DNA of 64,000 nt. It comes from a virus. Each line of letters opens with the position of its first letter. The first letter of the stretch is position 1. This document shows positions 1 to 57,790 of the stretch, piece after piece. Location of the stretch: the IMG/VR virus record IMGVR_UViG_3300009155_000044, positions 32,001 through 96,000 of that record; one strand, 5' to 3'. Under the pieces are notes generated by a model. It saw nothing but the letters and a program-made list of their open reading frames with translations. It was not told the DNA's origin and made no database searches. Position numbers and translations under genes: made by a program.

Positions 1-133
1 ACCCCTCGCTAGCAAAGGGGCACAGATTGATCTTGCCATTCATTATGTTAGGGACGAAAGACAATCCCCATGTCATGATGCCCATTTTTTCGCCTTTGAT
101 AATCTTCGTGTTGTTTTTAGAGAGTAACTTCAT
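1..133 (-). CDS. Partial small early ORF (runs off the window start), hypothetical
   Basis: ATG at 133 lies 6 nt downstream of TTGCAA-N16-TATAGT. It reads MKLLSKNNTKIIKGEKMGIMTWGLSFVPNIMNGKINLCPFASEG with no stop before position 1. Not in the ORF track. Confidence 0.65.
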   Translation of the reverse strand, partial: MKLLSKNNTKIIKGEKMGIMTWGLSFVPNIMNGKINLCPFASEG

Positions 134-213
134 GTCTGAACTATAGCACAGGAAAAAGAGATTGCAACGTTTTTTTGAATTTAAATTGATTTAAATTTTC
201 TGAAATTATTTAA

Positions 214-343
214 AATTCGCGGTTGACAAGGGCTGAAGCGATAGATGTTATAAGGGACTGGGAATTGATAACTCGTTGATTTTCAACGAGTTACGTGGGC
301 GCGGGGCGCGAATTGCTAGTGCGTTGATTTTCAACGAGTTGCA
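214..343 (+). repeat. Inter-cassette element copy 1 (TTGACA box plus two palindromes 48 bp apart)
   Basis: TTGACA at 223; TAACTCGTTGA-TTT-TCAACGAGTTA at 269-293; second CGTTGATTTTCAACG at 322. Confidence 0.95.
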
Positions 344-396
344 CATCCCCTGAAGCAGAGAAGCCCACCCCGAAGGGTGGGCTAAACTTGCTCGTA

Positions 397-738
397 TTAA
401 ATATCTCCTTTCAGAAAATCTGATCGAGTTGCCTCCAAATTATTTATGGCTACATCGAGAGCGTTAATGAGTTTATCGCGAGCATTAATGAGTTTTTGGA
501 CATCGAAACTAGGCTTTTTAATTTTGCCATTTTGATACCACCAGTCTTTTGAGCCATCAGGGCACTCAATGACAGGACCATCATAGCGACGGAGCTTTCC
601 ATTTTGATACCAACATTTTAAGCCACTAGCACACTCTACGGCAGGACCATCATCGCGATGGAGTATAGATTGGCCTGCATCGCAGTAATAATATTTACTG
701 CCGCAAGGATGAATTACAATATATTGATTTTGATTCAT
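397..738 (-). CDS. Small repeat protein with LHRxDGPAxE...WYxNGK repeats (common phage hypothetical)
   Basis: Two copies of the DGP(A/V)xE-x-x-x-G-x-K-x-WYQNGK motif; own promoter and terminator. Confidence 0.8.
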   Translation of the reverse strand: MNQNQYIVIHPCGSKYYYCDAGQSILHRDDGPAVECASGLKCWYQNGKLRRYDGPVIECPDGSKDWWYQNGKIKKPSFDVQKLINARDKLINALDVAINNLEATRSDFLKGDI

Positions 739-808
739 GATTCTCTACTATAGACTAAAAGGGGAGTGGTGCAAGTCTTTTTTTGATTTAAAGTATTTTT
801 TTTTCTGA

Positions 809-938
809 AATTCGCTGTTGACAAGGGCTGAAGCGGTAGATGTTATAAGGGGCTGGGAATTGATAGCGCGTTGATTTTCAACGAGTTACGCGAATGCGGG
901 GCGCGAATTGCTAGTGCGTTGAAAGTCAACGAGTTACG
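809..938 (+). repeat. Inter-cassette element copy 2
   Basis: TTGACA at 818; palindromes at 869 and 917 (second core GAAAGTC). Confidence 0.95.
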
Positions 939-1004
939 CAATCCCATTTGGGTGGACGCGAAAAACCCCGCAATCGGTTAGGATTGCGGGGCTTGCGCTA
1001 GCGG

Positions 1005-1763
1005 TTAGGCGACCAGCATTTCAGCATCGATTTCAATGATGCTGTCATGTTTCGCAACCCGATCAAACACGCTTTGCATCACCATGGTGCGCTGGGGCAA
1101 CTTGGTCAAATCTCCGTTCTTGAGATTTTCAGTGACAGAGTTGTAAAGACTCCACAGGGAATTGCCAGTGAACTCAGGATGACGGGGAGCGCGAAACTCC
1201 AGAATCGCGTTGTAAATGTCGCGAGCGGGGAAGGCTTTGCTATCTACCAACTTCACTAGCAAGTCCGAAGCGGTGGCGTCACCGATCACGGTTTCTTGAT
1301 AAGCTTTGATGCGCTTGCCCATGTCATTCCAGTGACTCACCACGCGGGACACTGCACTAGCGAGAACGCGAGGAATGTCATTCATGATGTTGGTAGTGTG
1401 GCGGCGAGCCAGCTTGATATCGCTTGCGAAGCACAAGTTATCACAAACGATCATGCGGTTGCCAACGCAAATGCTGGCGGCGAAAGTTTTATCGTGAGCG
1501 TTTCGGAGACCCAGCACGATGTTGCGATCAGCACTGTCAATGCCAGTTCCGCGCAAAGCGAAACCTCCAAAGTAGCGCAAGCCGCCGCGAGAGAGAGCGT
1601 GTTCTTCCTCGACGATTTCCAGGCCAGCATTGGAAATGGCAGTCCTGGTAGACTCTGCCAGCAAAGCATGAGGAATGGGTTGGAAACGATCCACAGCATC
1701 GGGAGTGGGAACGTTGGCGAGGGCAAGAGCGGAAACGACGTTTTTGGCAAGGAGGAGAGACAT
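1005..1763 (-). CDS. DUF932-like protein
   Basis: Motifs PIPHALL, RYFGGF and GLRNAHDKTFAASICVGNRMIVCDNLCF; promoter TTGCGC-N16-TATAGT at 1816-1843. Confidence 0.75.
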   Translation of the reverse strand: MSLLLAKNVVSALALANVPTPDAVDRFQPIPHALLAESTRTAISNAGLEIVEEEHALSRGGLRYFGGFALRGTGIDSADRNIVLGLRNAHDKTFAASICVGNRMIVCDNLCFASDIKLARRHTTNIMNDIPRVLASAVSRVVSHWNDMGKRIKAYQETVIGDATASDLLVKLVDSKAFPARDIYNAILEFRAPRHPEFTGNSLWSLYNSVTENLKNGDLTKLPQRTMVMQSVFDRVAKHDSIIEIDAEMLVA

Positions 1764-1879
1764 ATGGTTATTAGCTAGTGGTTTGGTTTAAGAGTTGCAA
1801 CGTGCAACTAAAAAGACTATAGACGAGATTCTGGAAGGCGCAACATTTATTTTGAGTTTCATGCAATTATTTTTTTCGA

Positions 1880-2004
1880 AATTCGCGGTTGACAAGGATG
1901 AAAGCAATAGATGTTATACGATGGTGCGAATTGATAACTCGTTGATTTTCAACGACTTACGCGGGCGCGGGGCGCGAATTGCTAGTGCGTTGAAAGTCAA
2001 CGAT
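1880..2004 (+). repeat. Inter-cassette element copy 3
   Basis: TTGACA at 1889; palindromes at 1940 and 1988 (second core GAAAGTC). Confidence 0.95.
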
Positions 2005-2072
2005 TTAGCGATGAGCAGAAAAAAGCCCACTCCGAAGAGTGGGCTAGTAGAGTTAGCGTGTTAGAGGATGAC

Positions 2073-2261
2073 TCATTCAGATTCAACCTTGTTGATCCAC
2101 TCGTCCATAATTTTTAGGTCTTCCTTTTCTTTGTTGCAGTATTCCATTTCTGGCATGTATCCATGAGTCAAAATTGACTCATGCCACTGTTCATTTTCTT
2201 TCATAGCGTTTGCCACTAGGCTGCAAATGATTGCCATGACTTCGTTTGATGGTTTTTCCAT
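2073..2261 (-). CDS. Hypothetical small protein
   Basis: 62-aa ORF directly downstream of the SprT-like gene and followed by a terminator. Confidence 0.7.
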   Translation of the reverse strand: MEKPSNEVMAIICSLVANAMKENEQWHESILTHGYMPEMEYCNKEKEDLKIMDEWINKVESE

Positions 2262-2270
2262 TTTGTTATT

Positions 2271-2603
2271 TTAGTTGATTTTTATGAATCGGGAAGGAGA
2301 AACTCCGATCTTCAAACACTGTAGCTTGAAACTCTTTCCATGCAAATCATTTTTTCCATTTTTAATTGGCCAGCCGCCATGTTCGCGCCAGTCTAAAAAG
2401 TGTGCCATTTCATGCTTTAAAATGCTGAAAAATAGTTTGCCGCTTTTCAAAGAGGTGAGAGAAAAAATGATTTTGTTGTTTTCAACATCTGCCAAAGCTA
2501 AAGCCCACTTGAGCGAATCGTTCCACTCCAACTGGACATCATCTAGGTTCCATCGTTGCAGCAGAGAAGATGCTGCAAGTTGAGCTTCAGCTTTGGAAAT
2601 CAT
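2271..2603 (-). CDS. SprT-like zinc metalloprotease domain protein
   Basis: HEMAH (HEXXH) plus downstream HGKSF motif. Likely start is MISK at 2603, because the track's extension to 2642 overlaps the tRNA remnant. Confidence 0.75.
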   Translation of the reverse strand: MISKAEAQLAASSLLQRWNLDDVQLEWNDSLKWALALADVENNKIIFSLTSLKSGKLFFSILKHEMAHFLDWREHGGWPIKNGKNDLHGKSFKLQCLKIGVSPSRFIKIN

Positions 2604-2617
2604 GAGATTAGAAAAAG

Positions 2618-2655
2618 TACACCTGCTGGGGATCGAACCCATGAGCTACAGGTGT
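2618..2655 (-). pseudogene. tRNA remnant (acceptor stem and T-arm only; D-loop, anticodon arm and variable loop missing)
   Basis: Minus strand reads ACACCTG-TAGCTCA-TGGG-TTCGATC-CCCAG-CAGGTGT-A: perfect 7-bp acceptor stem, canonical T8-A14 and TTCGA loop, no CCA. Confidence 0.75.
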
Positions 2656-2662
2656 AAAGTGT

Positions 2663-2842
2663 TTATTCCAGCCGAAAAGCTTTTTTTCGCAAGCTCTCAT
2701 CAACTTGCTTTTCCAGCCATGACTTTTGTTCAAAAACTTTTGAACCATAAACTGGATTGGACTGTGCGGCAGTGAACCACTGCTCCATTTGCTTGTCGCT
2801 TGGAAACAGAATTTGCTGAAGGAAGTAGAAGATTTTTTTCAT
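2663..2842 (-). CDS. Hypothetical 59-aa protein
   Basis: MKKIFYFLQQILFPSDKQ...KAFRLE-stop, translated by hand; same strand as neighbours; below the track cutoff. Confidence 0.55.
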   Translation of the reverse strand: MKKIFYFLQQILFPSDKQMEQWFTAAQSNPVYGSKVFEQKSWLEKQVDESLRKKAFRLE

Positions 2843-2893
2843 AGTAGTATAGTGGAGATTTAAAATGACAGGTTTTGCGCGAGAGTCAAGAAA

Positions 2894-3244
2894 TTATTCT
2901 TCATCGTAATTTTCTTCATTCTCTTCTTCATCCACTTCTGATTCGATGAGATCAATCAAGTCATCAAAAGTGGGACCGTTGCGAAATGCTGCTTCATATC
3001 CCTTGCCCATTCCGACAGAGGCAGACAGCGCTCCAAGGAACTCTGGACACAAGAATCGTCTCTGATCATCTGGGAATGATTGCAGCATGTGTTCGATGCT
3101 ATTAACAATTTCGCCAATCTGATTAGCGCTGTCACTAATCTGCTCCAGCATTTCTTTTTTATTCATGATGTTAATGGGTTGGAATGTTGTTGAACCGTCC
3201 AGAATGATACCACAGGTTTGAAGGACTGCAACTTTTATTTTCAA
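2894..3244 (-). CDS. Hypothetical protein with acidic C-terminus
   Basis: ORF track. The start may instead be ATG 3166 (MNKKEMLEQ). Confidence 0.65.
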   Translation of the reverse strand: MKIKVAVLQTCGIILDGSTTFQPINIMNKKEMLEQISDSANQIGEIVNSIEHMLQSFPDDQRRFLCPEFLGALSASVGMGKGYEAAFRNGPTFDDLIDLIESEVDEEENEENYDEE

Positions 3245-3249
3245 TTAAA

Positions 3250-3447
3250 TTATTCGTTCAGCGCTGTGAAACAGCGGGATCCAATCAGGTCGTCAACATA
3301 ATCTGGTTCCAGCAGAAATTCGTGCGCGAGAATGCGCTCTGGAGACTCACCATCCCACACGCGAGCGCGAGCCTCATTAACACATTGGCGAGCTTCATCA
3401 GGGAGAACTCCATCGCGGCGAATAATAATTTCTTCTATAATGTTCAT
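3250..3447 (-). CDS. Conserved small phage hypothetical protein (RDG...EAR...LEPDY type)
   Basis: ORF track; TTGACA-N16-TACTAT 6 nt upstream of the ATG. Confidence 0.75.
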   Translation of the reverse strand: MNIIEEIIIRRDGVLPDEARQCVNEARARVWDGESPERILAHEFLLEPDYVDDLIGSRCFTALNE

Positions 3448-3486
3448 GAGGCTATAGTAATGCGATGAAAGATCTTGTCAAGAGAG

Positions 3487-3576
3487 AGTTGCAAGCGAGT
3501 GAGTTGCAAATAGAGGAGTTGCAAATAGCGAAGTTGCAAATAGCGAAGTTGCAAATAGCGAAGTTGCAAATAGCAG
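3487..3576. repeat. 15-bp tandem repeat, six copies (consensus AGTTGCAAATAGCGA)
   Basis: AGTTGCAA recurs at 3487, 3502, 3517, 3532, 3547 and 3562. Confidence 0.95.
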
Positions 3577-3615
3577 TGTGTTAAATAGGAGTAGCAAAAA
3601 AATACAAAGCAATCT

Positions 3616-3740
3616 TGTAACTCGTTGATTTTCAACGTACTAGCAATTTGCGCCCCAAGATTGCGTAACTCATTGATTTTGAACGACTTACGCGAACGCG
3701 GGGCGCGAACTCGTAACTCGTTGATTTTCAACGACTTAGC
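3616..3740. repeat. Variant inter-cassette element (three palindromes, one spacer inverted)
   Basis: Palindromes at 3623, 3671 and 3719 in 48-bp steps; the first spacer is the reverse complement of the standard spacer. Confidence 0.9.
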
Positions 3741-3799
3741 AATTCCTATTCCTTGATAGAAAAAAACCCACCCTTTCGGGTGGGCCAAGTTTGATTGAT

Positions 3800-4087
3800 T
3801 CAGATTTTTTCCCAGAGGTCGCCTAGCAATTCCATCGTTTTTTCAAAGTGCAGGTCTTCCCTTTCAATAGCAGAGGTCAGGTCGCCGTAAGCTTTAACCC
3901 GCTTAGAATAAGCTTCCTCCAATTCCGCGTCCAATTTGTCGAGTACGGAATTAATGGTAGTTTGATTGTGAGCCAATGTAGACGCACTCCTTGCAAGGAG
4001 CACTTGAGCGTAGCTGAGTCGCCATTGCGCGTAGAAAAAGCGCAGGGTGAGGGACTTGTGACTAGAGATGAGATCGAATGAATTCAT
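3800..4087 (-). CDS. Hypothetical helical protein
   Basis: ORF track; TTGCGC-N16-TATAGT-N8-ATG; terminator downstream. Confidence 0.75.
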   Translation of the reverse strand: MNSFDLISSHKSLTLRFFYAQWRLSYAQVLLARSASTLAHNQTTINSVLDKLDAELEEAYSKRVKAYGDLTSAIEREDLHFEKTMELLGDLWEKI

Positions 4088-4158
4088 GATTCTCTACTAT
4101 AAACTAGAAAGGGAGTGGCGCAAGATCTTTTTTTGAATTTAAAGTATTTTTTTTCTGA

Positions 4159-4288
4159 AATTCGCTGTTGACAAGGGCGGAGGCGTGAGATGGTAGATGA
4201 GAGAGCGAATTGATAACCTGTTGATTTTCAACGACTTACGCGGGCGCGGGGCGCGAATTGCTAGTGCGTTGATTTTCAACGACTTACA
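4159..4288 (+). repeat. Inter-cassette element copy 5
   Basis: TTGACA at 4168; palindromes at 4219 and 4267. Confidence 0.95.
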
Positions 4289-4348
4289 GCGATGCATTCT
4301 CTAGCAACAAAAAAACCCACCCTTTCGGGTGGGTCGAGTTTGCTAGTG

Positions 4349-4774
4349 CTAGTGATTAACTATCATGTTCAATTTCCCACAGATGAACCGAATATTTTTT
4401 GCTTTTTTAAGCTGTACCCAAGATTCACGATTCCTATCAATAAACCATGAGAACTTGCTTTTTTGTGAGAGAAGGGAGCGGTAAAAGTTTTTGCCATTGA
4501 TAACTTTCTTTTCACCGTTTGGCAGAGTGAAGCTGATGCTAAAGAACTTTCCCTTACTGGCTTGAACTAGCGCTTCCAAGTGCGCGAACATTTTTTTCTG
4601 CTTTGCCATGCGGCAGAAGTGAGAGTTCAGCAGCATGAATGCTAGGGCTGCGCCCGTCACGATCCAAAGGACGAGGAAAAAGTAAAAGATGTTATGGCGC
4701 GAGATGTGAACGCCAAGGGCATTCATTTCGAGAGAGACAGCAATAAGTGAGGTGGTGGGCAAGAAGAATTTCAT
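4349..4774 (-). CDS. Hypothetical protein; hydrophobic N-terminal segment and basic C-terminal domain (KGKFFSISF...NG)
   Basis: ORF track; TTGCGC-N16-TATAGT-N8-ATG. Confidence 0.7.
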   Translation of the reverse strand: MKFFLPTTSLIAVSLEMNALGVHISRHNIFYFFLVLWIVTGAALAFMLLNSHFCRMAKQKKMFAHLEALVQASKGKFFSISFTLPNGEKKVINGKNFYRSLLSQKSKFSWFIDRNRESWVQLKKAKNIRFICGKLNMIVNH

Positions 4775-4846
4775 GATTCCCTACTATACATGAGAGAGAG
4801 TAACGCGCAAGTCTTTTTTTTTGAATTTAAAGTATTTTTTTTCTGA

Positions 4847-4976
4847 AATTCGCTGTTGACAAGGGCGGAGGCGTGAGATGTTAGATGAGAGAGCGAATTG
4901 ATAACTCGTTGATTTTCAACGACTTACGCGGGCGCGGGGCGCAAATTGCTAGTGCGTTGATTTTCAACGACTTACA
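4847..4976 (+). repeat. Inter-cassette element copy 6
   Basis: TTGACA at 4856; palindromes at 4907 and 4955. Confidence 0.95.
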
Positions 4977-5081
4977 ACAGCGCATTTTCTAGCAACAAAA
5001 AAACCCACCCTTTCGGGTGGGTCGAGTTTGCCAGCACTAGTGATTAACCATCATGTTCAATTTTCCACAGATGAACCGACG

Positions 5082-5282
5082 TCAGTCGGGAAGATTGTGC
5101 CAACCAAAGTACTCATCTTCCTGACCATGTAGCCTATCCTTTTCGCGCTGAGATTGAATAGTGCGATTGCTCTTACAGTATTCGCAGCTGCCATGGTTGC
5201 GGCAAGTGCGGTCAAAGGCTAAACTGCGGCGATACTGAACGCGCTTTTCTTTACCGTATTTGATTGCTTTTTCTAGGCTCAT
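5082..5282 (-). CDS. Small conserved phage protein with CxxHxxCxxC motif (possible Zn binding)
   Basis: MSLEKAIKYGKEKR...DRTCRNHGSCEYC; promoter at 5296-5323. Confidence 0.75.
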   Translation of the reverse strand: MSLEKAIKYGKEKRVQYRRSLAFDRTCRNHGSCEYCKSNRTIQSQREKDRLHGQEDEYFGWHNLPD

Positions 5283-5359
5283 ATTTTGATTCCCTACTAT
5301 ACATGAGAGAGAGCAACGCGCAAGATCTTTTTATATGATTTATTATTTTTTTTTCTTGA

Positions 5360-5489
5360 ATTTCGCGGTTGACAAGGGCGGAGGCGTGAGATGTTAGATG
5401 AGAGAGCGAATTGATAACTCGTTGATTTTCAACGACTTACGCGAACGCGGGGCGCGAATTGCTAGCGCGTTGAAAGTCAACGAGTTACA
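5360..5489 (+). repeat. Inter-cassette element copy 7
   Basis: TTGACA at 5369; palindromes at 5420 and 5468 (second core GAAAGTC). Confidence 0.95.
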
Positions 5490-5549
5490 GCGCTGCATTC
5501 GCGAGCAGCAAAAAAACCCACCCTTTCGGGTGGGTCGAGTTTGCTAGTA

Positions 5550-5687
5550 TTAGTCTTCGACTGGATCTTCCACTTGAGCGTAGAACTCATCTAGGAAAGC
5601 GTCGTATTCCGCCACCTCACCCGCATCAGCGGGCCAATGTGGGGAAATGTTATCGAATAGGTTGTGGAAGGTAGTGGTATCGTTCAT
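5550..5687 (-). CDS. 45-aa highly acidic protein
   Basis: MNDTTTFHNLFDNISPHWPADAGEVAEYDAFLDEFYAQVEDPVED, lying between TTGCGC-N16-TATACT-N8-ATG and a terminator. Not in the track. Confidence 0.75.
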   Translation of the reverse strand: MNDTTTFHNLFDNISPHWPADAGEVAEYDAFLDEFYAQVEDPVED

Positions 5688-5759
5688 GATCCCCTAGTAT
5701 ACCAGACTGCGGGAAAGGCGCAAGACATTTTATTCATTTAAAAGATTTTCTTTTCTTGA

Positions 5760-5889
5760 ATTTCGCCCTTGACAATGGCGCGGGGCGTATTTGTTATACG
5801 GAGGGGCGAATTGATAACTCGTTGATTTTCAAGGGGTTACGCGAACGGGGGGCGCGAATTGCTAGCGCGTTGATTTTCAACGAGTTACA
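5760..5889 (+). repeat. Inter-cassette element copy 8
   Basis: TTGACA at 5769; palindromes at 5820 and 5868. Confidence 0.93.
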
Positions 5890-5996
5890 ACGACGTATTT
5901 TGCTAGTGCTAGTATAACAGAAGCCCACCCTTTCGGGTGGGCCGACTTGCTAGCGTTAGGAGTGCCCACCCTTTCGGGTGGGCTAGTTTACTAATG

Positions 5997-6179
5997 TCAG
6001 ACATCGCATCCTTGACTCTGAAGGGACTTTTTAATTTCCTCCCATCGGCAAGCAGCTTGTTCAGCAAGCAGAGATGCTTCAACGTAAGCGTTAAGCGCTT
6101 CGCTCAATCTCTTTTCAAGACTGAGGATGATGATTTCATCGGTGAGGTGGAGGGATTCGGTTGCAGTGGTTTTTTCCAT
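5997..6179 (-). CDS. Hypothetical 60-aa protein
   Basis: Start reassigned to ATG 6179 (MEKTTATES), 6 nt after TTGCGT-N16-TATAGT. Confidence 0.7.
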   Translation of the reverse strand: MEKTTATESLHLTDEIIILSLEKRLSEALNAYVEASLLAEQAACRWEEIKKSLQSQGCDV

Positions 6180-6290
6180 GTTTTTACTATACGCGATGGA
6201 TGCGGGAACGCAAGTTTTATTTTTTCTTTTCAGAACTTTTTTCAAGGCACGAAAAAGCCCACTCTTTCGAGTGGGTTAAAGTTGATAGCG

Positions 6291-6482
6291 CTAGAGGCTT
6301 GTGATCCAATAGACTTTCGCGTTGTCAATGGCGTACATAGTTGCGCGATACAAGCGGCACTGCACTGATCGACCGCCATGCTGTTTCCAAAGCGCAATCG
6401 TTTCCGCGTGGAAAGCATCTGTCCAGCCATTGCTGTAACCTAAGTTTTTGTAACCTGCTTCAATCATTTCTTGCTCATTCAT
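6291..6482 (-). CDS. Hypothetical 63-aa protein
   Basis: ORF track; TTGCGT-N16-TATAGT-N8-ATG; terminator at about 6252. Confidence 0.75.
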   Translation of the reverse strand: MNEQEMIEAGYKNLGYSNGWTDAFHAETIALWKQHGGRSVQCRLYRATMYAIDNAKVYWITSL

Positions 6483-11993: not shown

Positions 11994-14900
11994 ATGAGTT
12001 GGGAAGCTGGACATCAAAAACTACACAATAAATTCAGAGGTATTAATGAAGAAATTCTCAATACCAAAGGATTTATTGATGAGAGAAAATCTAAAATTTT
12101 ATTATATAAATTTTTAAAAGAAAATCCCTCGTTCACTTCTGAATTCATGACAGGAGTCTCTTTGTTTCCTTTTCAACACATGGCTATTAAAGCGATGATG
12201 GACTCTGATTACTTTTTGGGAATATGGTGTTTAGATGAAAATGAATACGTTTTAACAGAAAGTGGTTTCAAGAAAATTAAAGATGTGAGTGTTGGAGAAC
12301 GAGTAAGATCTAGAAATAAATTAAATCTAGTTACTGATAAAAAATTCAACTCTCCCAATGAAAAAGGATTATATATCAAAACATTTTCAGGAGATTCTTT
12401 CAAGGCAAAACTTGGCCATAAAACTTTAATTTACAATAGCTCAACTTTAGATTTAGAATTTAAAGAGATTGAAACTTTAACAACTGAAGATTTCTTGCCA
12501 ATTAAACTTGGCATGAACTGTTGGGGAGATGTTCAATTGGTAGAGAACTCTCCAAAGATGAACATCGAAGATTGTGATTATTGGTATTTTTTATTAGGAT
12601 ACATGATTGGAGATGGATATTTTGACGACTACACTATGCACTGGTGTTCTGAAGATTCCAAGGTTATTGATATGACAATGGCTAAAGCTAAAGAGTATTT
12701 TCCTAAAAATAAAATTATTTGCCGCTCAAGAGCTAATAATGGATTTTTAGAAATGGGAATTTCTAGCAAAGATTTAATTGACTGGTTAAAATCTATTGGA
12801 TTTGATAGATCTTTAAAAGCAAAAAATAAAATCATACCAGACTCTATCCTCCAAATTAATGAGCAAAAAATGGCAGCTTTAATTAGCGGAATTTTTAGTG
12901 CAGATGGATATTGCAGCGTTCTAAAAGATAAAAGACACTCTAATTCAAAAACAGTTAAATTAGGATTAAAGAATACATCTATTGAATTGCTGAGACAGGT
13001 GAAAATGCTGCTTAATAATTTTGGAGTAGAATCTTCTATTAGATATAGTGGATCTCATAAAGATGTTCCATACTATGATTTAAAAATACTTAAAAGTGGA
13101 CATCAAAAATTTAGCGATAGAATTGGATTCGTTTCAGATCATAAACAAAATAATTTATTAGAGGTTTTAAATCTTCCAAGTAGAAAATATCAAATAAATT
13201 TAGTGCCAAATTTAGGAACTTATCTAAAGAAAAAATATAAAACGTGGCAAAAGTTATTTGGAGTAGCGGGAAACTTTGGTAAAGACATGCGTTTGGATTC
13301 TGCCTTATCAGCAAAGTTTTTAGATGAAAAAGATAAGGAGAGTCTTTTGCTTTTACAAAATGAAAATGTTTATTTTTCAAAAATTGAAACTATAACCTCC
13401 ATCGAAACTTCCACAGTAGACATTACAGTTGATTCTGAAGAGAATTACGTGGGTAATGGTATTGTGCATCATAATTCCCGTGGGATGTCCAAGTGCAGTC
13501 ATTACGATTCATTAGTGTGGACAGATAGAGGACTTATTAAAATTGGAGATATTAAAATTGGAGATAAAGTTCAAAGCCTTATAGGATTCAATGAAGTTGA
13601 AAATAAAGTTATAAATAATAAGCAGCAATCTTATAAGATTACTACTCAATCAGGATTAGTTTCTAATGGTTTGGATTATCATAAATTATTAGTCTTTAAT
13701 AAAGATTTAGAATTCGAATGGAAATTTTCTAAAGATATCATTATTGATGATATTTTGGTTATTAAAAAATTCAAAACTCTAGAACTTTTGCAAAAAGATA
13801 TTTTTGCAGATTTTAAATTTGAAAATAACGTAGTTAATTTTAATAAACCAAAAGTTGTTAAATTTGATAATGCACCTTTAAAGGATTGGTACTATTTCTT
13901 TGGTTTGCTTATTGGAGATGGGTGTATTTTAAATAGGGGAATATCTATCACTTCTGAAGATTTTGAAATTAAAGATTTTTTAGAAGCTTTTTCTTTAAAA
14001 CTGGGCCTTAATTTAACCGTTGTAAATAAACCAGGAAAAACCAAAGATTTTAGAATTTATTCAAAGGAATTAATTTCATTTTTATATCATTTAGGATTTG
14101 ATCAAAAAAAAGCTTGCGAAAAAAATATCCCAAGTATTTTAACACAAGCTTCATCAGAAAATATTCAATTTTTAATGAGAGGATTATTTGATACAGATGG
14201 ATATTGCGCCACTCAAAGAAAAGAAAAAAAAGGAACTCGTGTAAGGGTCGGATTTACTTCAACTAGCGAAGTACTAATCCATCAAATACTTAATCTATGT
14301 TTACAAGAAGGTTTTCTTTTTAAGAAAAAATTAACATTTAAAGGTGGTGCATCTAATTTTCCTAATGGAAAAATTTACAACTGCAATAAAGCTTGGAGTT
14401 TAATTTTAAGCGATGGCAAATCTGTAAAAGAATTTGGTGAAAAAATTGGTTTTAATATCAAAAGAAAACAATCTAAAATTCTTGATTTACAAGAACAAAC
14501 TTCACAAGATGGTAGTTTTTGTGAATTCATACCATATGTCGGAGATTTTTTAAAGAAAAAACTCAATAAGAAATCTATTTGTTTCATTAAAGACGAAAAA
14601 AAAATAAAATTAAATTTTAGAGAAAAAACTAGCAGAGTTCTTTTGAATAAAATTTTAAATTTTGAAAACTTACCAGATGATATTCGGGAAAAACTTAATT
14701 TTTTAAATAAAAATGATGTATATTTTGAAAAAGTTAAATCAGTAGAAATGGACGAATGCGTCACTGTTGATATTCAGGTTGCTAATGAACATTGTTATAT
14801 AGCAGATGGGATAGTTAATCACAACTCCTTTTCTACAGCAGTGTTTGCCATCTTAGATGCGACGTTAAATCAAGGAGTTCACATTGGAATTATTAGTAAA

Positions 14901-16433
14901 TCATTTCGTCAGTCAAAAATGATTTTTAGAAAAATTGAAGAAATTTCTAGAAGTCCAAAAGCTGGATTTTTAGCTCAGTGCATCACTAGAATTTCCAAAA
15001 CAAATGATGAGTGGATCATTGAAATTGGTAGAAGTCGAATCACTGCTCTTCCATTAGGAGATGGTGAAAAATTAAGAGGTTTTCGCTTTCAAAGAATGAT
15101 TATTGACGAACTTCTTTTGATGCCAGAAAAGATTTTAAATGAAGTTATTCTTCCATTCTTATCTGTGGTGGAAAATCCTACAGAAAGACAGCAGCTTCAC
15201 GATTTAGAGAGTAAATTAATAGCCAAGGGAGAAATGATAGAAGAGGATCGCTATCGCTGGCCAAGTAATAAGATTATTGGTTTATCATCAGCAAGTTACA
15301 AGTTTGAATACTTGTACAAATTGTATCAAGAGTATGAACGACTCATTATGCATCCAGATAAGCAAGATGGCGCTCACAGAGTCATCATGCACTTTAGCTA
15401 CGACTGCGCTCCACAGCAATTATACGATCAGAACTTGCTCAGCCAAGCAAAAGCTACAATGAGTCAATCTCAATTTGAAAGAGAATTTGGAAGCGTATTT
15501 ACAGATGATAGCTCAGGCTATTTTAAAGTTAGCAAAATGGCTCTCTGCACAGTAGTTGATGGAGAGGGACAAAGTGTGGAAATCGTGGGAGAATCAAAGG
15601 CTGAATATATTGCTAGTTTTGACCCTTCATGGTCAGAGAGTGATGGATCAGATGATTTTGCTATTCAATTAATCAAATTAAATCCATCCAAGAAAGGAGG
15701 AACTGTGGTTCACTCTTATGCTATGCCAGGAACTAATTTGAAAAAGCACATCGAGTATTTTCACTATTTATTAAGTAATTTTAATATTATAGCTGTTGTG
15801 GGAGACTACAATGGAGGCGTTCAATTTTTAAGCGCATGTAATGAGAGCGAACTTTTTAAAAGAGATGGTTTAAAACTTGAAACTTTTGATTTTGATTTTG
15901 ACAACATAGCAGATTATGACAAATCTTTACGCGAGGCTAGAAGTCAATACAATTTAACAACTAAAAGAATAGTTCATTTGAGAAAGCCTAGTTCTTTTTG
16001 GATTAGATATGCTAATGAATTGCTTCAAGGATCTTTTGATCATCGAAGAATCTGGTTTGCGGGCATGGCAATTGATGATGATTACTCTAAGCAAAAAACT
16101 GCCAAGATTAGCATTGATGATATCAAGTATAGTAAAATAGAAGAGGATCTTTCTTCTGGGGCAAAGTTGATTGATTTTATTGAGCATCAGAAAGACATGA
16201 TTGAATTAATTAAAGTTCAATGCGCTCTTGTGCAAGTAACAACATCCACTCAAGGAACTCAAAGTTTTGATTTGCCCTCAAATCTCAAAAAACAAAAGGG
16301 TGCAAACAGAGCTAGAAAAGATTCTTACTCAGCTTTAGTGTTGGGAAACTGGATGATGCACATGTATTATGACATGATGGCAGTGGAAGCAACTGCTGCT
16401 CCGATTGGATTCACTCCAATGTTTATTTGTTGA
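11994..16433 (+). CDS. terL: Terminase large subunit with two inteins (about 619 aa after splicing)
   Basis: Spliced P-loop W-SRGMSK-SFS, Walker B MIIDE, GLSSA coupling motif, RNase H-like FDP...DDFA and terminal KDSYSAL. Confidence 0.92.
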   Translation: MSWEAGHQKLHNKFRGINEEILNTKGFIDERKSKILLYKFLKENPSFTSEFMTGVSLFPFQHMAIKAMMDSDYFLGIWCLDENEYVLTESGFKKIKDVSVGERVRSRNKLNLVTDKKFNSPNEKGLYIKTFSGDSFKAKLGHKTLIYNSSTLDLEFKEIETLTTEDFLPIKLGMNCWGDVQLVENSPKMNIEDCDYWYFLLGYMIGDGYFDDYTMHWCSEDSKVIDMTMAKAKEYFPKNKIICRSRANNGFLEMGISSKDLIDWLKSIGFDRSLKAKNKIIPDSILQINEQKMAALISGIFSADGYCSVLKDKRHSNSKTVKLGLKNTSIELLRQVKMLLNNFGVESSIRYSGSHKDVPYYDLKILKSGHQKFSDRIGFVSDHKQNNLLEVLNLPSRKYQINLVPNLGTYLKKKYKTWQKLFGVAGNFGKDMRLDSALSAKFLDEKDKESLLLLQNENVYFSKIETITSIETSTVDITVDSEENYVGNGIVHHNSRGMSKCSHYDSLVWTDRGLIKIGDIKIGDKVQSLIGFNEVENKVINNKQQSYKITTQSGLVSNGLDYHKLLVFNKDLEFEWKFSKDIIIDDILVIKKFKTLELLQKDIFADFKFENNVVNFNKPKVVKFDNAPLKDWYYFFGLLIGDGCILNRGISITSEDFEIKDFLEAFSLKLGLNLTVVNKPGKTKDFRIYSKELISFLYHLGFDQKKACEKNIPSILTQASSENIQFLMRGLFDTDGYCATQRKEKKGTRVRVGFTSTSEVLIHQILNLCLQEGFLFKKKLTFKGGASNFPNGKIYNCNKAWSLILSDGKSVKEFGEKIGFNIKRKQSKILDLQEQTSQDGSFCEFIPYVGDFLKKKLNKKSICFIKDEKKIKLNFREKTSRVLLNKILNFENLPDDIREKLNFLNKNDVYFEKVKSVEMDECVTVDIQVANEHCYIADGIVNHNSFSTAVFAILDATLNQGVHIGIISKSFRQSKMIFRKIEEISRSPKAGFLAQCITRISKTNDEWIIEIGRSRITALPLGDGEKLRGFRFQRMIIDELLLMPEKILNEVILPFLSVVENPTERQQLHDLESKLIAKGEMIEEDRYRWPSNKIIGLSSASYKFEYLYKLYQEYERLIMHPDKQDGAHRVIMHFSYDCAPQQLYDQNLLSQAKATMSQSQFEREFGSVFTDDSSGYFKVSKMALCTVVDGEGQSVEIVGESKAEYIASFDPSWSESDGSDDFAIQLIKLNPSKKGGTVVHSYAMPGTNLKKHIEYFHYLLSNFNIIAVVGDYNGGVQFLSACNESELFKRDGLKLETFDFDFDNIADYDKSLREARSQYNLTTKRIVHLRKPSSFWIRYANELLQGSFDHRRIWFAGMAIDDDYSKQKTAKISIDDIKYSKIEEDLSSGAKLIDFIEHQKDMIELIKVQCALVQVTTSTQGTQSFDLPSNLKKQKGANRARKDSYSALVLGNWMMHMYYDMMAVEATAAPIGFTPMFIC
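12228..13475 (+). mobile_element. Intein 1 in TerL with LAGLIDADG homing endonuclease (416 aa)
   Basis: Starts CLDENEYV, ends GIVHHN before Ser; motifs LLGYMIGDG and ISGIFSADG. Confidence 0.93.
13494..14825 (+). mobile_element. Intein 2 in TerL with LAGLIDADG homing endonuclease (444 aa)
   Basis: Starts CSHYDSLV, ends GIVNHN before Ser; motifs FFGLLIGDG and MRGLFDTDG. Confidence 0.93.
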
Positions 16434-16487: not shown

Positions 16488-18473
16488 ATGGAAAAAAGAG
16501 CGTATACTAAAAAGTCTGATTATTGGTCTAATTTTACTAAAGCATCTGTAGAAGGAACTGCTGCACAAAATGGAGAGTTCGTTCCAGAATTATCTGGTGA
16601 TCCTTTTTACGTCTCACAGTCTTCATTCAAATCAACATCAAATGCAGCTTATTCTCGCAAAGCATCGTCAACAACTTATAATAGAAAAAATGTAGGAGCT
16701 TTTGTTCCAGTAATTGATCGATATGGCAGCATTCGCAATGGACTTTTGCCTTATGATTATGCAATGGATGGAGTTAATGTTAGAGAGGCTATTGAACTGT
16801 GTCAAAAAGCTTATGCTAATGTGTCTGTTTTTCGCAATGCTATTGATGTTATGTCTGAGTTTGCCAATACTGAACTTTACTTAGAGGGTGGAACAAAAAA
16901 AAGTCGTGATTTTTTCAATGAGTGGTTTAAAAGAATTAAAATTTGGAACTTGAAAGATCAGTACTTTAGAGAGTACTACAGAGGAGGAAACATTTTCTTG
17001 TACAGAGTTGATGGTAAATTTAAAGCTGATGATTTTGCTCTTTTAGTAAAACAGCTTGGCGGAGTGTCTAAAATTAATAATTCTATTCCTGTTAAGTATA
17101 TTTTGCTCAATCCTTTTGACGTTGTCGCTAGGAGAAGCTCTAGTTTTGCAACTGGATTGTACGAAAAAATTCTTTCAGAATACGAACTCTCTCGCCTTCA
17201 AACTCCTGTTACAGAAGAGGACAAAGATATTTTAAATGGTCTGCCACCAAAGGTGAGAGAGCAGATTAAAATAGGAACTTACTTTAAAGATGGCTTGAAA
17301 ATTGAACTTGATCCATCTAAATTAAGTTATTCCTTTTATAAAAAGCAAGACTACGAACCGTTTGCAGTTCCATTTGGATTTTCAGTTTTAGAAGATATCA
17401 ATGCTAAATTAGAGTTGAAAAAAATGGATCAAGCGATTACTCGCACTGTAGAGAACGTTATTCTTCTCATCACAATGGGAACGGATCCAGACAAGGGCGG
17501 CATTAATGCTAATAATTTGCAAGCTATGCAAGGCTTGTTCCGAAATGAGAGCGTGGGCAGAGTTTTAGTTTCAGACTATACAACAAAAGCTGATTTTGTC
17601 ATTCCAGATCTTAACAAAGTTCTTGGTTCTGAAAAATATAAAGTGTTAAATGAGGACATCAAACAAGGATTACAAAACATCATTGTTGGAGAAGAGAAAT
17701 ATAGCGCTACAGAAGTTAAAGCTCAGATTTTTGTTGATCGTTTAAAAGAGTCTCGCAATGCTTTCTTGAATGACTTTTTGCAAGTTGAGATTAAACGCAT
17801 AGCTAAAAATCTTGGCTTTAGATCTTATCCTACAGCATGTTTTAGAGACATTGACATGAGAGATCAAACTCAACTCATGAGAGTTTCTAGTCGTTTAATG
17901 GAGCTAGGCATTCTCACTCCTCAACAAGGCATGGAAATGTTCCAAACTGGCAAATTTCCAAAACCAGAAGACATCTCTCCAGCACAATCAGTTTATATTG
18001 ATGAGAGAAAAGATGGATACTATAATCCTATTGTTGGGGGAATTCCTTTCATCTCTCCTCCAACTCCAGTTGCTGGCAAAATCAATGCTACTAATAAAGT
18101 ACCTGGACGACCAGAGGGAACAACTGGTATTCCAATCGTGAAAGCTGAATATTCTGTTAAAAATATTCATTCTACCATTAAAAAAATGGAGCAAATGAGA
18201 GCTTTAGCAGATGCTTCTCTTAAAAAGAAATTTAAAATTAAAACTCTCTCAGAACAGCAGTCTAGTATTTTAGATCAACTGTGCGAGAAAGTTATTGTTT
18301 CTAAAGATGCAGAAAATTGGGCATCTTGTGCTAGTTCTTGTGTAAACGACTTTGAACAAATTTCTCTTTTGCAACCAAAAGAGGAAATCTTATCCATTTT
18401 AGCGGAGCATCAACTCGAAGATGACTTGTCAGCAGCAATCCTTTACCACTCAAACCAAATCAATGAAAATTAA
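16488..18473 (+). CDS. Portal protein
   Basis: 661 aa directly after terL and before protease/capsid; EYYRGGNIFLYR and EPFAVPFGF segments. Confidence 0.8.
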   Translation: MEKRAYTKKSDYWSNFTKASVEGTAAQNGEFVPELSGDPFYVSQSSFKSTSNAAYSRKASSTTYNRKNVGAFVPVIDRYGSIRNGLLPYDYAMDGVNVREAIELCQKAYANVSVFRNAIDVMSEFANTELYLEGGTKKSRDFFNEWFKRIKIWNLKDQYFREYYRGGNIFLYRVDGKFKADDFALLVKQLGGVSKINNSIPVKYILLNPFDVVARRSSSFATGLYEKILSEYELSRLQTPVTEEDKDILNGLPPKVREQIKIGTYFKDGLKIELDPSKLSYSFYKKQDYEPFAVPFGFSVLEDINAKLELKKMDQAITRTVENVILLITMGTDPDKGGINANNLQAMQGLFRNESVGRVLVSDYTTKADFVIPDLNKVLGSEKYKVLNEDIKQGLQNIIVGEEKYSATEVKAQIFVDRLKESRNAFLNDFLQVEIKRIAKNLGFRSYPTACFRDIDMRDQTQLMRVSSRLMELGILTPQQGMEMFQTGKFPKPEDISPAQSVYIDERKDGYYNPIVGGIPFISPPTPVAGKINATNKVPGRPEGTTGIPIVKAEYSVKNIHSTIKKMEQMRALADASLKKKFKIKTLSEQQSSILDQLCEKVIVSKDAENWASCASSCVNDFEQISLLQPKEEILSILAEHQLEDDLSAAILYHSNQINEN

Positions 18474-50424: not shown

Positions 50425-53202
50425 ATGGAAAAAAATATTTACTGGCTCAATGCAGATTCTCGCAAATTTTTAAGCAGCGGTTATTTGATGGACGGCGAAA
50501 CTGCTGAGCAGAGAATATCTGATGTTGCACAAACAGCAGAAAGTCTTTTATCTGTAAGCGAGGATTGTATTACTAAAGTTAATGATTACCTCAAATGCAA
50601 AAGTTTTGCTGAGAAGTTCGCAGACTATCTTGAGCGTGGATTTTATTCATTATCATCTCCTAATTGGTCAAACTTTGGCAGAAAAAGAGGTCTTCCAATT
50701 TCTTGTTTTGGAACTTATCTAGAAGATTCTATCGAGTCTATTACTGGTCATAAACTTGCTGAAATCAGCATGATGACAAAATCTGGGGGAGGCACTAGCG
50801 CATTTTTTGGCAATGTTCGTCCTAGAGGATCTAAAATTTCATCTGGTGGAGAATCAACAGGTTCAGTTCATTTTATGGAACTCTACGATAAGATGATGAC
50901 TGTTGTCTCTCAGGGAAATACGAGAAGAGGAGCTTGTGCAATATATCTTCCAATTGATCATGGTGATATCGAAGAATTTTTAAAAATTAAATCAGAAGGA
51001 AATGATATTCAAGAACTCTCAATTGGAGTCTGCGTCACTAATAAGTGGATGCAGGACATGATTGATGGCAATAAAGAAAATAGAAGAATCTGGGGTCTTG
51101 TGATTCAAAAGAGATTTGAAAGCGGATATCCATACATCTTTTTCTCTGATAACGCTAATGATCAAGCCCCTCAAGTTTATAAAGATAAAAATTTAAAAAT
51201 CAGTCATTCAAATCTTTGCGTCACTGGAGATCAAAGGGTTATTTCTAATTTTGGAATTTTAACGGCAAAAGAACTCTATGAAAATGGAGATGAGTTAATT
51301 CTTTTTGATAATGAAAAAGAAGTAAAAGCATCAAAAATGAAATTAGTTGAGAAAGATGCTGATGTTTTTGAAATTAAACTTGAGAATGGAATGTCGCATA
51401 AAATTACATCCTATCATAAAGTTTCTACAAAAGATGGGGATATAGCATGTCACGATTTAAAAATTGGAGATTCTGTTGCGGTTCAAACAAATAAGGGAAT
51501 TTTTGGAAATAATGATATGACCAAAGAAGCATTTCTTCTTGGTTTATATCAAGCTGATGGAACTCAACATAAAGATTATATTATGATTGATATTTGGAGA
51601 AATGATTTTGATTTAATTGAAGAAGTTCAAAATGCTCATGATTTCGTATCTGATAAATATAAAACTCAAATTTCTCTCTATAATAATAGAGTTTATCAAA
51701 ACGCTAGTTTTTGCAACTGTGTTGTTGCTGAAGGGTCTCATGAGAAAAAAAGACTATCTAGTAAAGCACTTAAAAAAGCATTGAATTTTGAAAAAGGATA
51801 CGTTCCAGAATGGATCTGGTCGTCCAATGAAGAAACGCTATGGCAATACATTAGAGGTCTTTACTATGCAGACGGAACTGTGTTTAAATCTAAATCATCT
51901 GGAGAACCACTTCAAATTTCACTAGCTTCAATTAACAAAGAATTTCTAGAAGAAGTGCAAATTATTTTAGCAAATCTTGGAATGCAATCATCAATTCGCC
52001 TTTTAAGAGAAAGTTGTGAGTCGTTACTTCCTGATGGACATGGAGGAAACAAAATGTATAAAACTAAAACTGCTTGGAGATTAATTATTGGAAATAAAAA
52101 TGATGCATTAGTTTTTAATAAAAATACTAAATTTCTTGATAGAAAAAATATTATTCTAGAGGATCGTGAATATAGAGATAATACTAAAAAATTCTATAAA
52201 GTTTCATCTATTTCTAATATTGGGCAAGAGGATGTCTATTGTTGCACAGTAGAATCAAAATCTCATCACTGGATCTGCAATGGAGTTGTTACTCACAACT
52301 GTAATGAAATAATGCTTGCTGATTCTCCAACAGAATCTTTTGTTTGTAATTTGTCATCTCTGAATCTGGATAAGTGGGAAGAGTGGAAAGATACTGATGC
52401 TGTTGAAACAATGGTATTTTTCTTGGATGCTGTCATGACAGAGTTTATTAATAAAACTGAAAACATGGCATTCATGAGTCATGCTCGCAACTTTGCAATC
52501 AATCAGAGAGCGCTTGGTATTGGAGTTCTTGGTTGGCATTCACTACTTCAGTCTAAAATGATTCCTTTTGAATCAATGGATGCTAAAATTTTAAATAACC
52601 AAATTTGGAAAACAATCAGAAATCGCGCCGATGTGGCTACTGAGAAATTAGCTGAAATCTATGGAGAACCAGCATTACTTGAAGGATATGGTCGTCGTAA
52701 TGTGACTACAATAGCTGTAGCTCCAACAGTAAGCTCAAGCTTTATTCTTGGTCAAGTCTCTCAGGGCATTGAACCTTTAAATGGCAATTACTTTGTTAAA
52801 GGATTAGCTAAGGGCGATTTCTCTTATCAAAATCCCTATTTAGAAAAATTGCTAATTGAAAAAAATCAAAACTCCGCAGAAGTTTGGAAATCTATTTTAA
52901 TTCGAGGAGGATCTGTTGCTCATTTAGATTTCTTGTCTGAAAATGAAAAAGCTACTTTTAAAACTTTTGGAGAAATCTCTCAGAAAGAAATTATCATTCA
53001 AGCCTCTCAACGTCAAAAATACATTGACCAAGGTCAAAGCTTAAACATCATGATTCCTCCTTCAGCATCTGCCAAAGAAGTTAATCAACTTATGATTTTT
53101 GCATGGGAACAAGGAATCAAAGGCTTGTATTATCAAAAGAGCGCTAATCCAGCGCAAGAACTAGCTCGCTCTATTCTCAATTGCGAATCATGCCAAGCAT
53201 AA
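50425..53202 (+). CDS. nrdA: Ribonucleotide reductase class I alpha subunit with intein (about 564 aa after splicing)
   Basis: LPISCF, spliced SNL-CNEI, VAPTVSS, GIKGLYYQ, C-terminal CESC. Confidence 0.95.
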   Translation: MEKNIYWLNADSRKFLSSGYLMDGETAEQRISDVAQTAESLLSVSEDCITKVNDYLKCKSFAEKFADYLERGFYSLSSPNWSNFGRKRGLPISCFGTYLEDSIESITGHKLAEISMMTKSGGGTSAFFGNVRPRGSKISSGGESTGSVHFMELYDKMMTVVSQGNTRRGACAIYLPIDHGDIEEFLKIKSEGNDIQELSIGVCVTNKWMQDMIDGNKENRRIWGLVIQKRFESGYPYIFFSDNANDQAPQVYKDKNLKISHSNLCVTGDQRVISNFGILTAKELYENGDELILFDNEKEVKASKMKLVEKDADVFEIKLENGMSHKITSYHKVSTKDGDIACHDLKIGDSVAVQTNKGIFGNNDMTKEAFLLGLYQADGTQHKDYIMIDIWRNDFDLIEEVQNAHDFVSDKYKTQISLYNNRVYQNASFCNCVVAEGSHEKKRLSSKALKKALNFEKGYVPEWIWSSNEETLWQYIRGLYYADGTVFKSKSSGEPLQISLASINKEFLEEVQIILANLGMQSSIRLLRESCESLLPDGHGGNKMYKTKTAWRLIIGNKNDALVFNKNTKFLDRKNIILEDREYRDNTKKFYKVSSISNIGQEDVYCCTVESKSHHWICNGVVTHNCNEIMLADSPTESFVCNLSSLNLDKWEEWKDTDAVETMVFFLDAVMTEFINKTENMAFMSHARNFAINQRALGIGVLGWHSLLQSKMIPFESMDAKILNNQIWKTIRNRADVATEKLAEIYGEPALLEGYGRRNVTTIAVAPTVSSSFILGQVSQGIEPLNGNYFVKGLAKGDFSYQNPYLEKLLIEKNQNSAEVWKSILIRGGSVAHLDFLSENEKATFKTFGEISQKEIIIQASQRQKYIDQGQSLNIMIPPSASAKEVNQLMIFAWEQGIKGLYYQKSANPAQELARSILNCESCQA
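51217..52299 (+). mobile_element. Intein in NrdA with LAGLIDADG endonuclease (361 aa)
   Basis: Starts CVTGDQRV, ends VVTHN before Cys; motifs LLGLYQADG and IRGLYYADG. Confidence 0.93.
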
Positions 53203-54203: not shown

Positions 54204-54250
54204 TTTAAAAATTTGTGTTGAAGAAGTTGATTTGCAAGTTAAAATAGGTT

Positions 54251-56504: not shown

Positions 56505-56540
56505 AATTAATAGAAAATAAATATATTATCAGTTAATATT

Positions 56541-57788: not shown

Positions 57789-57790
57789 TT

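Follow-up and report, generated by a model that had tools for sequence, protein, structure and literature searches.

A paired-palindrome control element in an early-gene cassette array of an uncultured siphovirus-type phage and its counterparts in bacterial chromosomes

We analysed a 64,000-nucleotide stretch of DNA (the window), comprising bases 32001-96000 of the 120,073-bp IMG/VR virus record IMGVR_UViG_3300009155_000044, which is 93 % complete. Our subject is an array of small gene cassettes at its start and the control element, carrying two palindromes, that is repeated between them. The source genome is that of an uncultured, large siphovirus-type (long-tailed) phage without an isolate relative, and comparison with 50,697 isolate phage records gave no match to either its DNA or its portal protein. 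The array consists of 13 small transcription units, all of its genes lying on the minus strand, and has a G+C content of 44-46 % against ~33 % for the genome.

Searching the window for CGTTGA-NNN-TCAACG with ≤ 1 mismatch returned 16 matches against 0.03 expected, all at the palindrome starts listed in a preliminary description of this DNA, while a 17th copy at 3671 carries 2 mismatches (CATTGATTTTGAACG). All 9 of the 9 palindrome-to-palindrome intervals in the window are exactly 48 bp, as had been reported. The same description counted eight elements, which is correct for the window, but its bounds were too narrow: five more lie upstream, making 13 in total, and the array reaches to genome position 28,059, 4 kb before the window start, where the outermost element is inverted at a strand switch. 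Between this inverted element and the first standard one lies a promoter-like remnant (CTTGCGC ... ACAGTAGAG; genome 28120-28205) with no gene behind it. Beyond the array we found weak palindrome look-alikes only, except for one 36-nt solo copy.

Alignment of 13 elements revealed a common layout in which, in the order of transcription, a terminator (a GGGTGGG-type hairpin and T-run) is followed by a variable 24-42 bp, the palindrome block, an A/T tract and a sigma70-type promoter. The conserved repeat runs from promoter through terminator and measures ~250 bp, not the ~130 bp first proposed for the repeat unit. Within it lies a rigid block of ~130 bp, ordered palindrome 2, 19-bp GC-rich spacer, palindrome 1, 22 bp, TGTTAT, 17 bp, TTGACA. 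The palindromes share the core TCGTTGA-N3-TCAACGA and the outer words TAAsT/AsTTA; their interval is 48 bp in 14/14 cases over the whole array, TTGACA stands 51 bp from palindrome 1 in 9/9 elements that have it, and the distances from the block to the terminator and to the stop codon are variable. The minus-strand promoter is of the type TTGCGC-17-TATAGT (more generally TTGCxx-16/17-TATAGT) and the ATGs follow TATAGT by only 6-14 nt, so the mRNAs would be leaderless or nearly so. Minus-strand terminators with T-runs occur at 2045, 3786, 4335, 5023, 5536, 5943 and 6275. On the plus strand TTGACA-17-TGTTAT resembles an outward-facing promoter with a poor -10, and this word, being near-palindromic, reads TTGTCA-17-AAAAAT in minus-strand orientation. 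Element polarity tracks the direction of transcription; the lone inverted copy is placed just behind the plus-strand operon next door, after its terminator. A conserved small open reading frame running across the palindromes was considered and rejected, as only some copies have one. The features of the array within the window are as follows.

134-383, minus strand: control element (genome 32274 copy), promoter of the GP88-family gene ending at 133; TTGACA 223-228, TGTTAT 246-251, palindromes 274-288 and 322-336, terminator hairpin 362-383
397-738, minus strand: c5, 113 amino acids, no family
739-991, minus strand: control element; TATAGT, 8 nt, ATG at 738; TTGACA 818-823; palindromes 869-883 and 917-931, centre AAG; terminator ~966-991
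1005-1763, minus strand: c6, 252 amino acids, DUF932 family
1764-2045, minus strand: control element; TTGACA 1889-1894; palindromes 1940-1954 and 1988-2002; terminator 2024-2045
2073-3447, minus strand: c7a-e, a five-gene unit (62, 123, 59, 90 and 65 amino acids), the 123-amino-acid product being SprT-like
3448-3786, minus strand: rearranged element; operon promoter TTGACA-16-TACTAT (3481..3454); tandem AGTTGCAAATAG repeats ~3478-3590; palindromes 3623-3637, 3671-3685 and 3719-3733; terminator 3765-3786
3800-4087, minus strand: c8, 95 amino acids, no family
4088-4335, minus strand: control element; TTGACA 4168-4173; palindromes 4219-4233 and 4267-4281; terminator 4314-4335
4349-4774, minus strand: c9, 141 amino acids, hydrophobic N-terminus, C-terminal part like the WYL_2-like gene c3b
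4775-5023, minus strand: control element; TTGACA 4856-4861; palindromes 4907-4921 and 4955-4969; terminator 5002-5023
5025-5282, minus strand: c10, chimeric; 66 amino acids paralogous to the gene at genome 29184-29588 but truncated, then a duplicate of the c9 3' tail
5283-5536, minus strand: control element; TTGACA 5369-5374; palindromes 5420-5434 and 5468-5482; terminator 5515-5536
5550-5687, minus strand: c11, 45 amino acids
5688-5990, minus strand: last palindrome-bearing control element; TTGACA 5769-5774; palindromes 5820-5834 and 5868-5882; two terminator hairpins, 5922-5943 and ~5963-5984
5997-6482, minus strand: c12 (5997-6179) and c13 (6291-6482), each with its own promoter and terminator, without palindromes or TTGACA box

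Judged from the families represented in the array (DUF932, two SprT-like proteins, GP88, L5-gp82, WYL_2 and an Ogg/HhH-like protein), the cassette genes are typical accessory early genes. Each unit has a promoter and terminator of its own, as first described, but the units are not all single open reading frames, three being operons of 2-5 genes. Nor does the palindrome element separate all cassettes: most are so divided, and the last two (5997-6179, 6291-6482) are without palindromes. Because these two have promoter and terminator without the block, the palindrome block is a separable module. The triple element at 3448-3786 is composed of two dual elements in opposite orientation with the middle palindrome in common. 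The tandem repeats within it, upstream of the five-gene operon promoter (window 3478-3590), have a 14-15-bp unit (A)GTTGCAAATAG that is also found at the end of the plus-strand operon (L005:7870-7990) and in relatives (L009 ~5600, L006 ~400). Both arrays of this repeat adjoin a palindrome element without a TTGACA box, and the repeats could be iterons or regulator sites.

To follow the element in other phages we fetched related loci via the DUF932 gene, obtaining 14 relatives, and then ran a 79-bp core profile on thirteen loci, 10 of which contained the palindrome element. The paired pattern is present in other viral contigs, and the block is kept in nine related phage contigs. In an alignment of 69 elements from 10 phage contigs the palindrome extends to GTAAsT-CGTTGA-NNN-TCAACG-AsTTAC, with TAA..T..A..TTA invariant and TTT the commonest centre (35 and 20 of 69 copies). 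Between genomes the identity of the palindromes is 0.67-0.84 against 0.34-0.68 for the spacer, so that the constraint on spacing despite a drifting spacer, claimed at first for the window, is borne out across genomes but hardly within this one, where spacer identity is 0.84. A spacer of 19 nt (48-bp interval) is present in 33/33 elements from this phage and the two relatives nearest to it, and one of 21 nt (50-bp interval) in 36/36 elements from seven more distant contigs. The 48-bp value is lineage-specific; its supposed invariance holds here and in the closest relatives but gives way to 50 bp in the distant ones and to 58 bp in one bacterial genome. Three relatives without full palindromes (L018, L020, L024) carry a homologous module of different make-up (e.g. 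L020:10860-10960), in which AACTTAC is followed by the GC stem GACCCC-NNNN-GGGGTC, with loops of TTCG, GAAG, TACG or GTAG, and then by GTAAGTTTTTGA.

The aligned elements were also compared with column shuffles for evidence of conserved base pairing. Observed pairing was 82.4 % against 80.7 % for a two-hairpin fold and 82.2 % against 81.0 % for a nested fold, and compensatory base-pair change was not supported for either. The C/G position of the arms is mismatched in 37/68 copies, and degenerate copies have lost pairing without compensation. As pairing does not rise above column composition, it is the sequence of the palindromes that is conserved, which is the pattern a double-stranded binding site would show. 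The preliminary suggestion of a protein-bound site gains from this, the arms being kept by sequence rather than by pairing and the spacing constrained while the sequence of the spacer decays. Rfam families had no match in the array, nor at the bacterial sites described below apart from tRNAs.

An exact search for the 25-mer TAAsTCGTTGA-NNN-TCAACGAsTTA in one genome per prokaryotic species identified it in 26 bacterial stretches. All but one belong to the Fibrobacteres-Chlorobi-Bacteroidetes and Planctomycetes-Verrucomicrobia-Chlamydiae (FCB/PVC) groups, namely Bacteroidota, Fibrobacter (Fibrobacterota), Verrucomicrobiota and Lentisphaerota, the exception being a phage-like contig binned as Enterobacterales. 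Most of the stretches are chromosomal, and a few, which have dual palindromes and a GC spacer, are clearly phage-like. The palindrome is thus common to phage and bacterial chromosomes and not private to the phage, a point that the preliminary description did not anticipate. Raising the tolerance to ≤ 3 mismatches gives 17 sites for an Akkermansia muciniphila genome, 16 for a Verrucomicrobiales metagenome-assembled genome and 7 for Fibrobacter succinogenes, with 0 for a reversed control. The bacterial sites are intergenic, often 50-110 bp upstream of starts, and are found 4-14 nt after tRNA genes, beside integrases, and 5' of a RepA-type initiator, of dnaA and of argS, the latter two with DnaA-box-like words nearby. 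Comparison of an orthologous Fibrobacter locus gives 95-100 % identity for the arms against 48-60 % for the 150-bp flanks. In the Verrucomicrobiales genome pairs of palindromes 58 bp apart are set inside inverted repeats.

Several further observations concern these bacterial copies. The DnaA-box-like words adjoining the dnaA- and argS-upstream copies of the Akkermansia genome (G004) read TGTTCCACA, and many main copies (G004, L051-L065) have a second palindrome, TGCATT-N4/5-AATGCA, often followed by GTATAC/T, at a distance of 9-25 bp. At the argS-upstream palindrome two Akkermansia genomes (L038 and L039) differ in having TAC and GTA centres between flanks that are 95-97 % identical, a small inversion of the whole palindrome. 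Two ~30-kb phages (L007:3935-3997, L010:760-822) carry the same 15-bp core, CGTTGAAAATCAACG, three times with a 24-bp period inside a 235-amino-acid HTH_36 gene, which looks like origin iterons within an initiator gene; this phage has no homologue of that putative HTH_36 replication initiator, so the match is probably coincidental or confined to the core. Other candidates for a known reader were rejected: for an Rrf2-type regulator (11-3-11 sites), none of the Rrf2 genes in three genomes with the palindrome adjoins a site, and the 135-146-amino-acid open reading frames next to bacterial sites, considered as autoregulated neighbours, have no common family. The non-canonical LexA motifs of Bacteroidetes (GGA-N5-TCC, CTAA-N5-TTAG; PMC8565304) do not match. 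A literature search by sequence words found no relevant paper.

From the anatomy and conservation of the element we infer, at what we would put as roughly an even chance for the reading as a whole, that the palindromes are paired docking sites for a dimeric, probably host protein, set in cassettes like the promoter-early stem-loops (PeSLs) of T4-type phages. The two palindromes would be double-stranded docking sites for a predicted dimeric DNA-binding protein, which is probably cellular because searches of the phage revealed no candidate gene and the same palindrome is kept in bacterial chromosomes. Two dimers held at fixed spacing and in fixed register to TTGACA/TGTTAT would form a nucleoprotein plug between a terminator and the next promoter. 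Its effect would be to shield each unit from read-through or from the promoter-like box that faces outward, or else to tune the promoters.

As to the identity of the protein, an architectural protein of the IHF/HU type is the leading candidate reader, an unproven lead only, because each half-site fits the IHF consensus WATCAANNNNTTR. Genes of the HU/IHF family were not found in the phage but are present in the palindrome-bearing bacteria. The full consensus is matched by 84/138 palindromes and its core by 131/138, and of the matches to WATCAANNNNTTR that the phage genome contains, 21/46 are within the 10-kb array. Regions of phage attachment (att), replication-initiator genes and promoter regions are classical contexts of IHF, and the palindrome resembles IHF sites in its settings as well as its half-site, being found at integrase/tRNA att positions, at dnaA, at a RepA-type initiator and at phage early promoters. 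It differs from them in that its carriers are FCB/PVC phyla and its conservation goes far beyond the IHF consensus. A broader proposal, possible but in our view clearly short of probable, is that the palindrome is the recognition site of an FCB/PVC DNA-binding protein that marks dnaA-proximal regions, tRNA/integrase junctions and promoters, and that the phage has multiplied it as rigid pairs to recruit or titrate this protein at each early unit.

A number of points weigh against the docking-site interpretation. No gene for a candidate binder turned up in searches of the phage proteome, and since known function is missing for ~87 % of the phage protein families a binder encoded by the phage is itself possible. 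IHF proper is proteobacterial and is not known from FCB/PVC phyla. An interval of 48 bp amounts to ~4.6 helical turns, which is not an obvious phasing for cooperative binding. In the Verrucomicrobiota the site is present in 11/201 sampled genomes and multi-copy in only three, a patchy distribution that argues against a universally conserved housekeeping protein, and no coherent regulon emerges among the flanking bacterial genes. In L018, L020 and L024 the module has become a GC hairpin resembling a terminator, with half palindromes on either side. Finally, the middle palindrome of the triple element (genome 35662-35697) recurs 19 kb away at genome 16754-16789 as an exact 36-nt reverse-complement copy, which adds 12 codons in frame to a Ser-Val-x-x mini-gene (16577-16864, plus strand). 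As the 36 nt are identical, one palindrome unit has been copied there recently, and the presence of a solo copy within a coding mini-gene suggests mobility more than regulation.

This inverted in-frame copy also points to a selfish palindromic repeat, similar to repetitive extragenic palindromic (REP) sequences or miniature inverted-repeat transposable elements, that would inhabit intergenic DNA of the phage lineage and of some bacteria without function for the phage. The patchy distribution with some genomes multi-copy fits such an origin, as do the dual palindromes of the Verrucomicrobiales genome, 58 bp apart within ~28-bp inverted repeats, and the copies that adjoin tRNA genes and integrases. 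Paired palindromes behind genes also recall the enterobacterial mosaics of REP sequences and bacterial interspersed mosaic elements. Unlike in those mosaics, however, no Y1 transposase of the REP-associated tyrosine transposase/IS200 type (PF01797) was found in five palindrome-rich bacterial genomes, while the control genomes matched; the phage was not searched for it. A functionless repeat would also not be expected to keep a fixed register to promoter boxes or to be oriented consistently with transcription, to have arms under purifying selection at orthologous bacterial sites with diverged flanks, or to show constrained spacing across nine relatives, and we consider this explanation unlikely.

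We hold a similarly low opinion of the possibility that the palindromes act as nucleic-acid hairpins between early genes, formed in read-through or plus-strand TTGACA transcripts or as cruciforms, with roles as back-up terminators, stabilisers of 3' ends or, as in T7 early mRNA, targets of RNase III-type processing. Single strands do fold strongly, into two hairpins or one nested structure (-27 to -41 kcal/mol, z -3.8 to -7.1), energies that any palindrome gives. Also in favour are the Bacteroidota copies 4-14 nt past tRNA genes with T-runs after them, the GC stem, UNCG-like loops and T-run of the homologous module in L018, L020 and L024, and the flip of the Akkermansia central triplet from TAC to GTA, which suggests that hairpin or cruciform intermediates occur. 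The phage palindromes, however, lie behind an efficient-looking terminator and have no T-runs after them, and 5/13 Akkermansia sites fall between divergent genes. Neither fold is supported beyond column composition, over half of the copies have a mismatched C/G arm position, and a mere stem would not be expected to show sequence identity across phyla. The geometry of stem and loop fits hairpin promoters of the N4 type (5-7-bp stem, 3-nt loop), which are read by a giant virion RNA polymerase; an N4-like system seems unlikely as the only giant open reading frame (2728 amino acids) matches tape-measure families, and a search for a T7-like RNA polymerase (PF00940) gave no match, with the controls also silent.

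Still less probable, in our estimation, is that each element is a small-RNA gene in which the plus-strand TTGACA-17-TGTTAT drives a ~130-nt RNA containing both palindromes and ending at a bidirectional terminator hairpin. A perfect -35, the 17-bp spacer and an upstream T-rich tract are kept in relatives while the intervening sequence drifts, and the distance to the palindrome is fixed at 51 bp. Against this, position 2 of the TGTTAT -10 is not the key A and the box goes uncalled by the scan tool, the plus strand has no U-run after the terminator hairpin, and there is neither covariation nor an Rfam match. The word GTTGACAAG is moreover nearly palindromic and could equally be a TTGTCA box of the minus strand.

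Turnover of the cassettes themselves was assessed by comparison with the related phages. Shared cassette genes are colinear in 10/10 relatives compared while cassette content differs, c1, c10 and c12 also varying between relatives. The two closest relatives (L011, L012) lack c5 and one element, and the high-scoring segment pairs flanking the gap overlap inside the repeat (L011 10827-10977), with indel breakpoints anywhere within ~150 bp of shared repeat. Because the flanking alignments overlap within the repeat, the c5 indel is attributable to homologous recombination between repeats, and because the control regions are long repeats they are where cassettes would be added or deleted. Cassette turnover is, as judged from these alignments, ordinary homologous recombination at long repeats and a by-product of them; among the phage's own genes are ones for RecA-, ERCC4- and PD-(D/E)XK-type proteins. 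The plug-and-play shuffling first suggested for this array stands in so far as cassettes are gained and lost at elements, but of the fixed order and fixed content named beforehand as speaking against it, the former was found.

A dedicated pair of recombination sites, as also put forward in the preliminary description, is not supported by the analysis. Sites of an integron-, shufflon- or res-like kind, where cassettes are cut out, inserted or turned round by a recombinase, could account for the presence or absence of c5 and one element between close relatives, the chimeric c10 and the inverted and triple elements, and 12-3-12 sites are reminiscent of serine-recombinase accessory sites. This is nevertheless very improbable given that neither a tyrosine integrase (PF00589) nor a serine resolvase (PF00239) was found in the 120-kb, 93 %-complete record, with control genomes matched for both, that the 3-bp centre differs from the 6-8-bp or 2-bp crossovers of known recombinases, that promoters are individual to the cassettes and no relative departs from the common order of shared genes, and that breakpoints scatter over the ~150-bp repeat as homologous recombination gives. 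Integron/attC arrays differ further in having an adjacent IntI-type tyrosine recombinase and promoterless cassettes served by a common Pc promoter rather than a promoter and terminator for each unit, and res/hix sites of serine recombinases in their 2-bp centre.

The closest counterparts of the array are found in other phages. PeSLs are mobile regulatory cassettes of T4-type phages (Arbiol et al. 2010, PMC2839356), in which small non-essential early genes are bracketed by a repeated sigma70-like promoter and stem-loop terminator, and recombination between units gives rise to insertions, deletions and replacements between close relatives, as with the c5 indel here. The present phage is by contrast not T4-type but siphovirus-like, with a 2728-amino-acid tape measure, and its cassettes contain an extra rigid block of two palindromes and TTGACA/TGTTAT boxes. 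Cluster O mycobacteriophages carry a 17-bp dyad repeat, TGTTCGG-NNN-CCGAACA (Cresawn et al. 2015, PMC4351075). This repeat is palindromic (7-3-7), its centre is A/T-rich and most commonly TTT/AAA, and it is present in dozens of mostly intergenic copies in the leftward non-structural arm, with indels arising by recombination between copies; the present array shares these traits. The element described here is of unrelated sequence, has 12-bp arms, is paired at 48/50 bp and keeps a register with promoter boxes; and whereas the Cluster O site is reported as absent from the genomes of M. smegmatis and M. tuberculosis (PMC4351075), ours is found in bacterial chromosomes. The resemblance is on sequence grounds one of likeness, not homology.

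Stoperators of Cluster A phages share with the element their many copies in the short intergenic spaces of an early arm and a polarity tied to transcription, and have been proposed to block elongation (PMC9283540, PMC6550527). They are, however, 13-bp asymmetric sites bound by a monomeric immunity repressor of the phage itself, while those described here are paired palindromes, in a phage for which the searches revealed no repressor gene. HTH_3 had no match in the phage, the controls having matched, and a proteome scan that listed 25 of 40 Pfam families revealed no repressor among those 25.

Elsewhere in the genome, the predicted proteins include PhoH, a baseplate protein, ThyX, SSB, RecA, ERCC4, PD-(D/E)XK nucleases and homing endonucleases, together with the tape measure, a large terminase with two inteins and a ribonucleotide reductase with one. 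The terminase gene with its two intein/LAGLIDADG insertions and the large-subunit gene of the reductase with its one occupy window 11994-16433 and 50425-53202, respectively. Shine-Dalgarno sequences are nearly absent genome-wide. The motif (T)AGTGTAAA recurs 10-25 nt 5' of several plus-strand starts in window 7300-64000 (e.g. 8149, 16488, 22796, 29895, 41025) and may be a middle or late promoter word. Across a block of sugar-nucleotide and glycosyltransferase genes (window 54000-64000) the G+C content falls to 0.20-0.27.

Early-gene cassette arrays house the fast-changing host-takeover and anti-defence genes of phages, and their regulation and rebuilding are known for few model phages. Were the paired palindromes inert, the locus described here would be an ordinary PeSL-like cassette array. 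If they do recruit a host protein, this would be another case of a phage borrowing the chromosome-organising or regulatory proteins of its host, and would bring to light a new bacterial motif together with its reader. The shared motif belongs to bacterial phyla that have been little studied, and its occurrence among them in Akkermansia muciniphila, a cultivable gut bacterium, offers a concrete handle on the putative binding protein.

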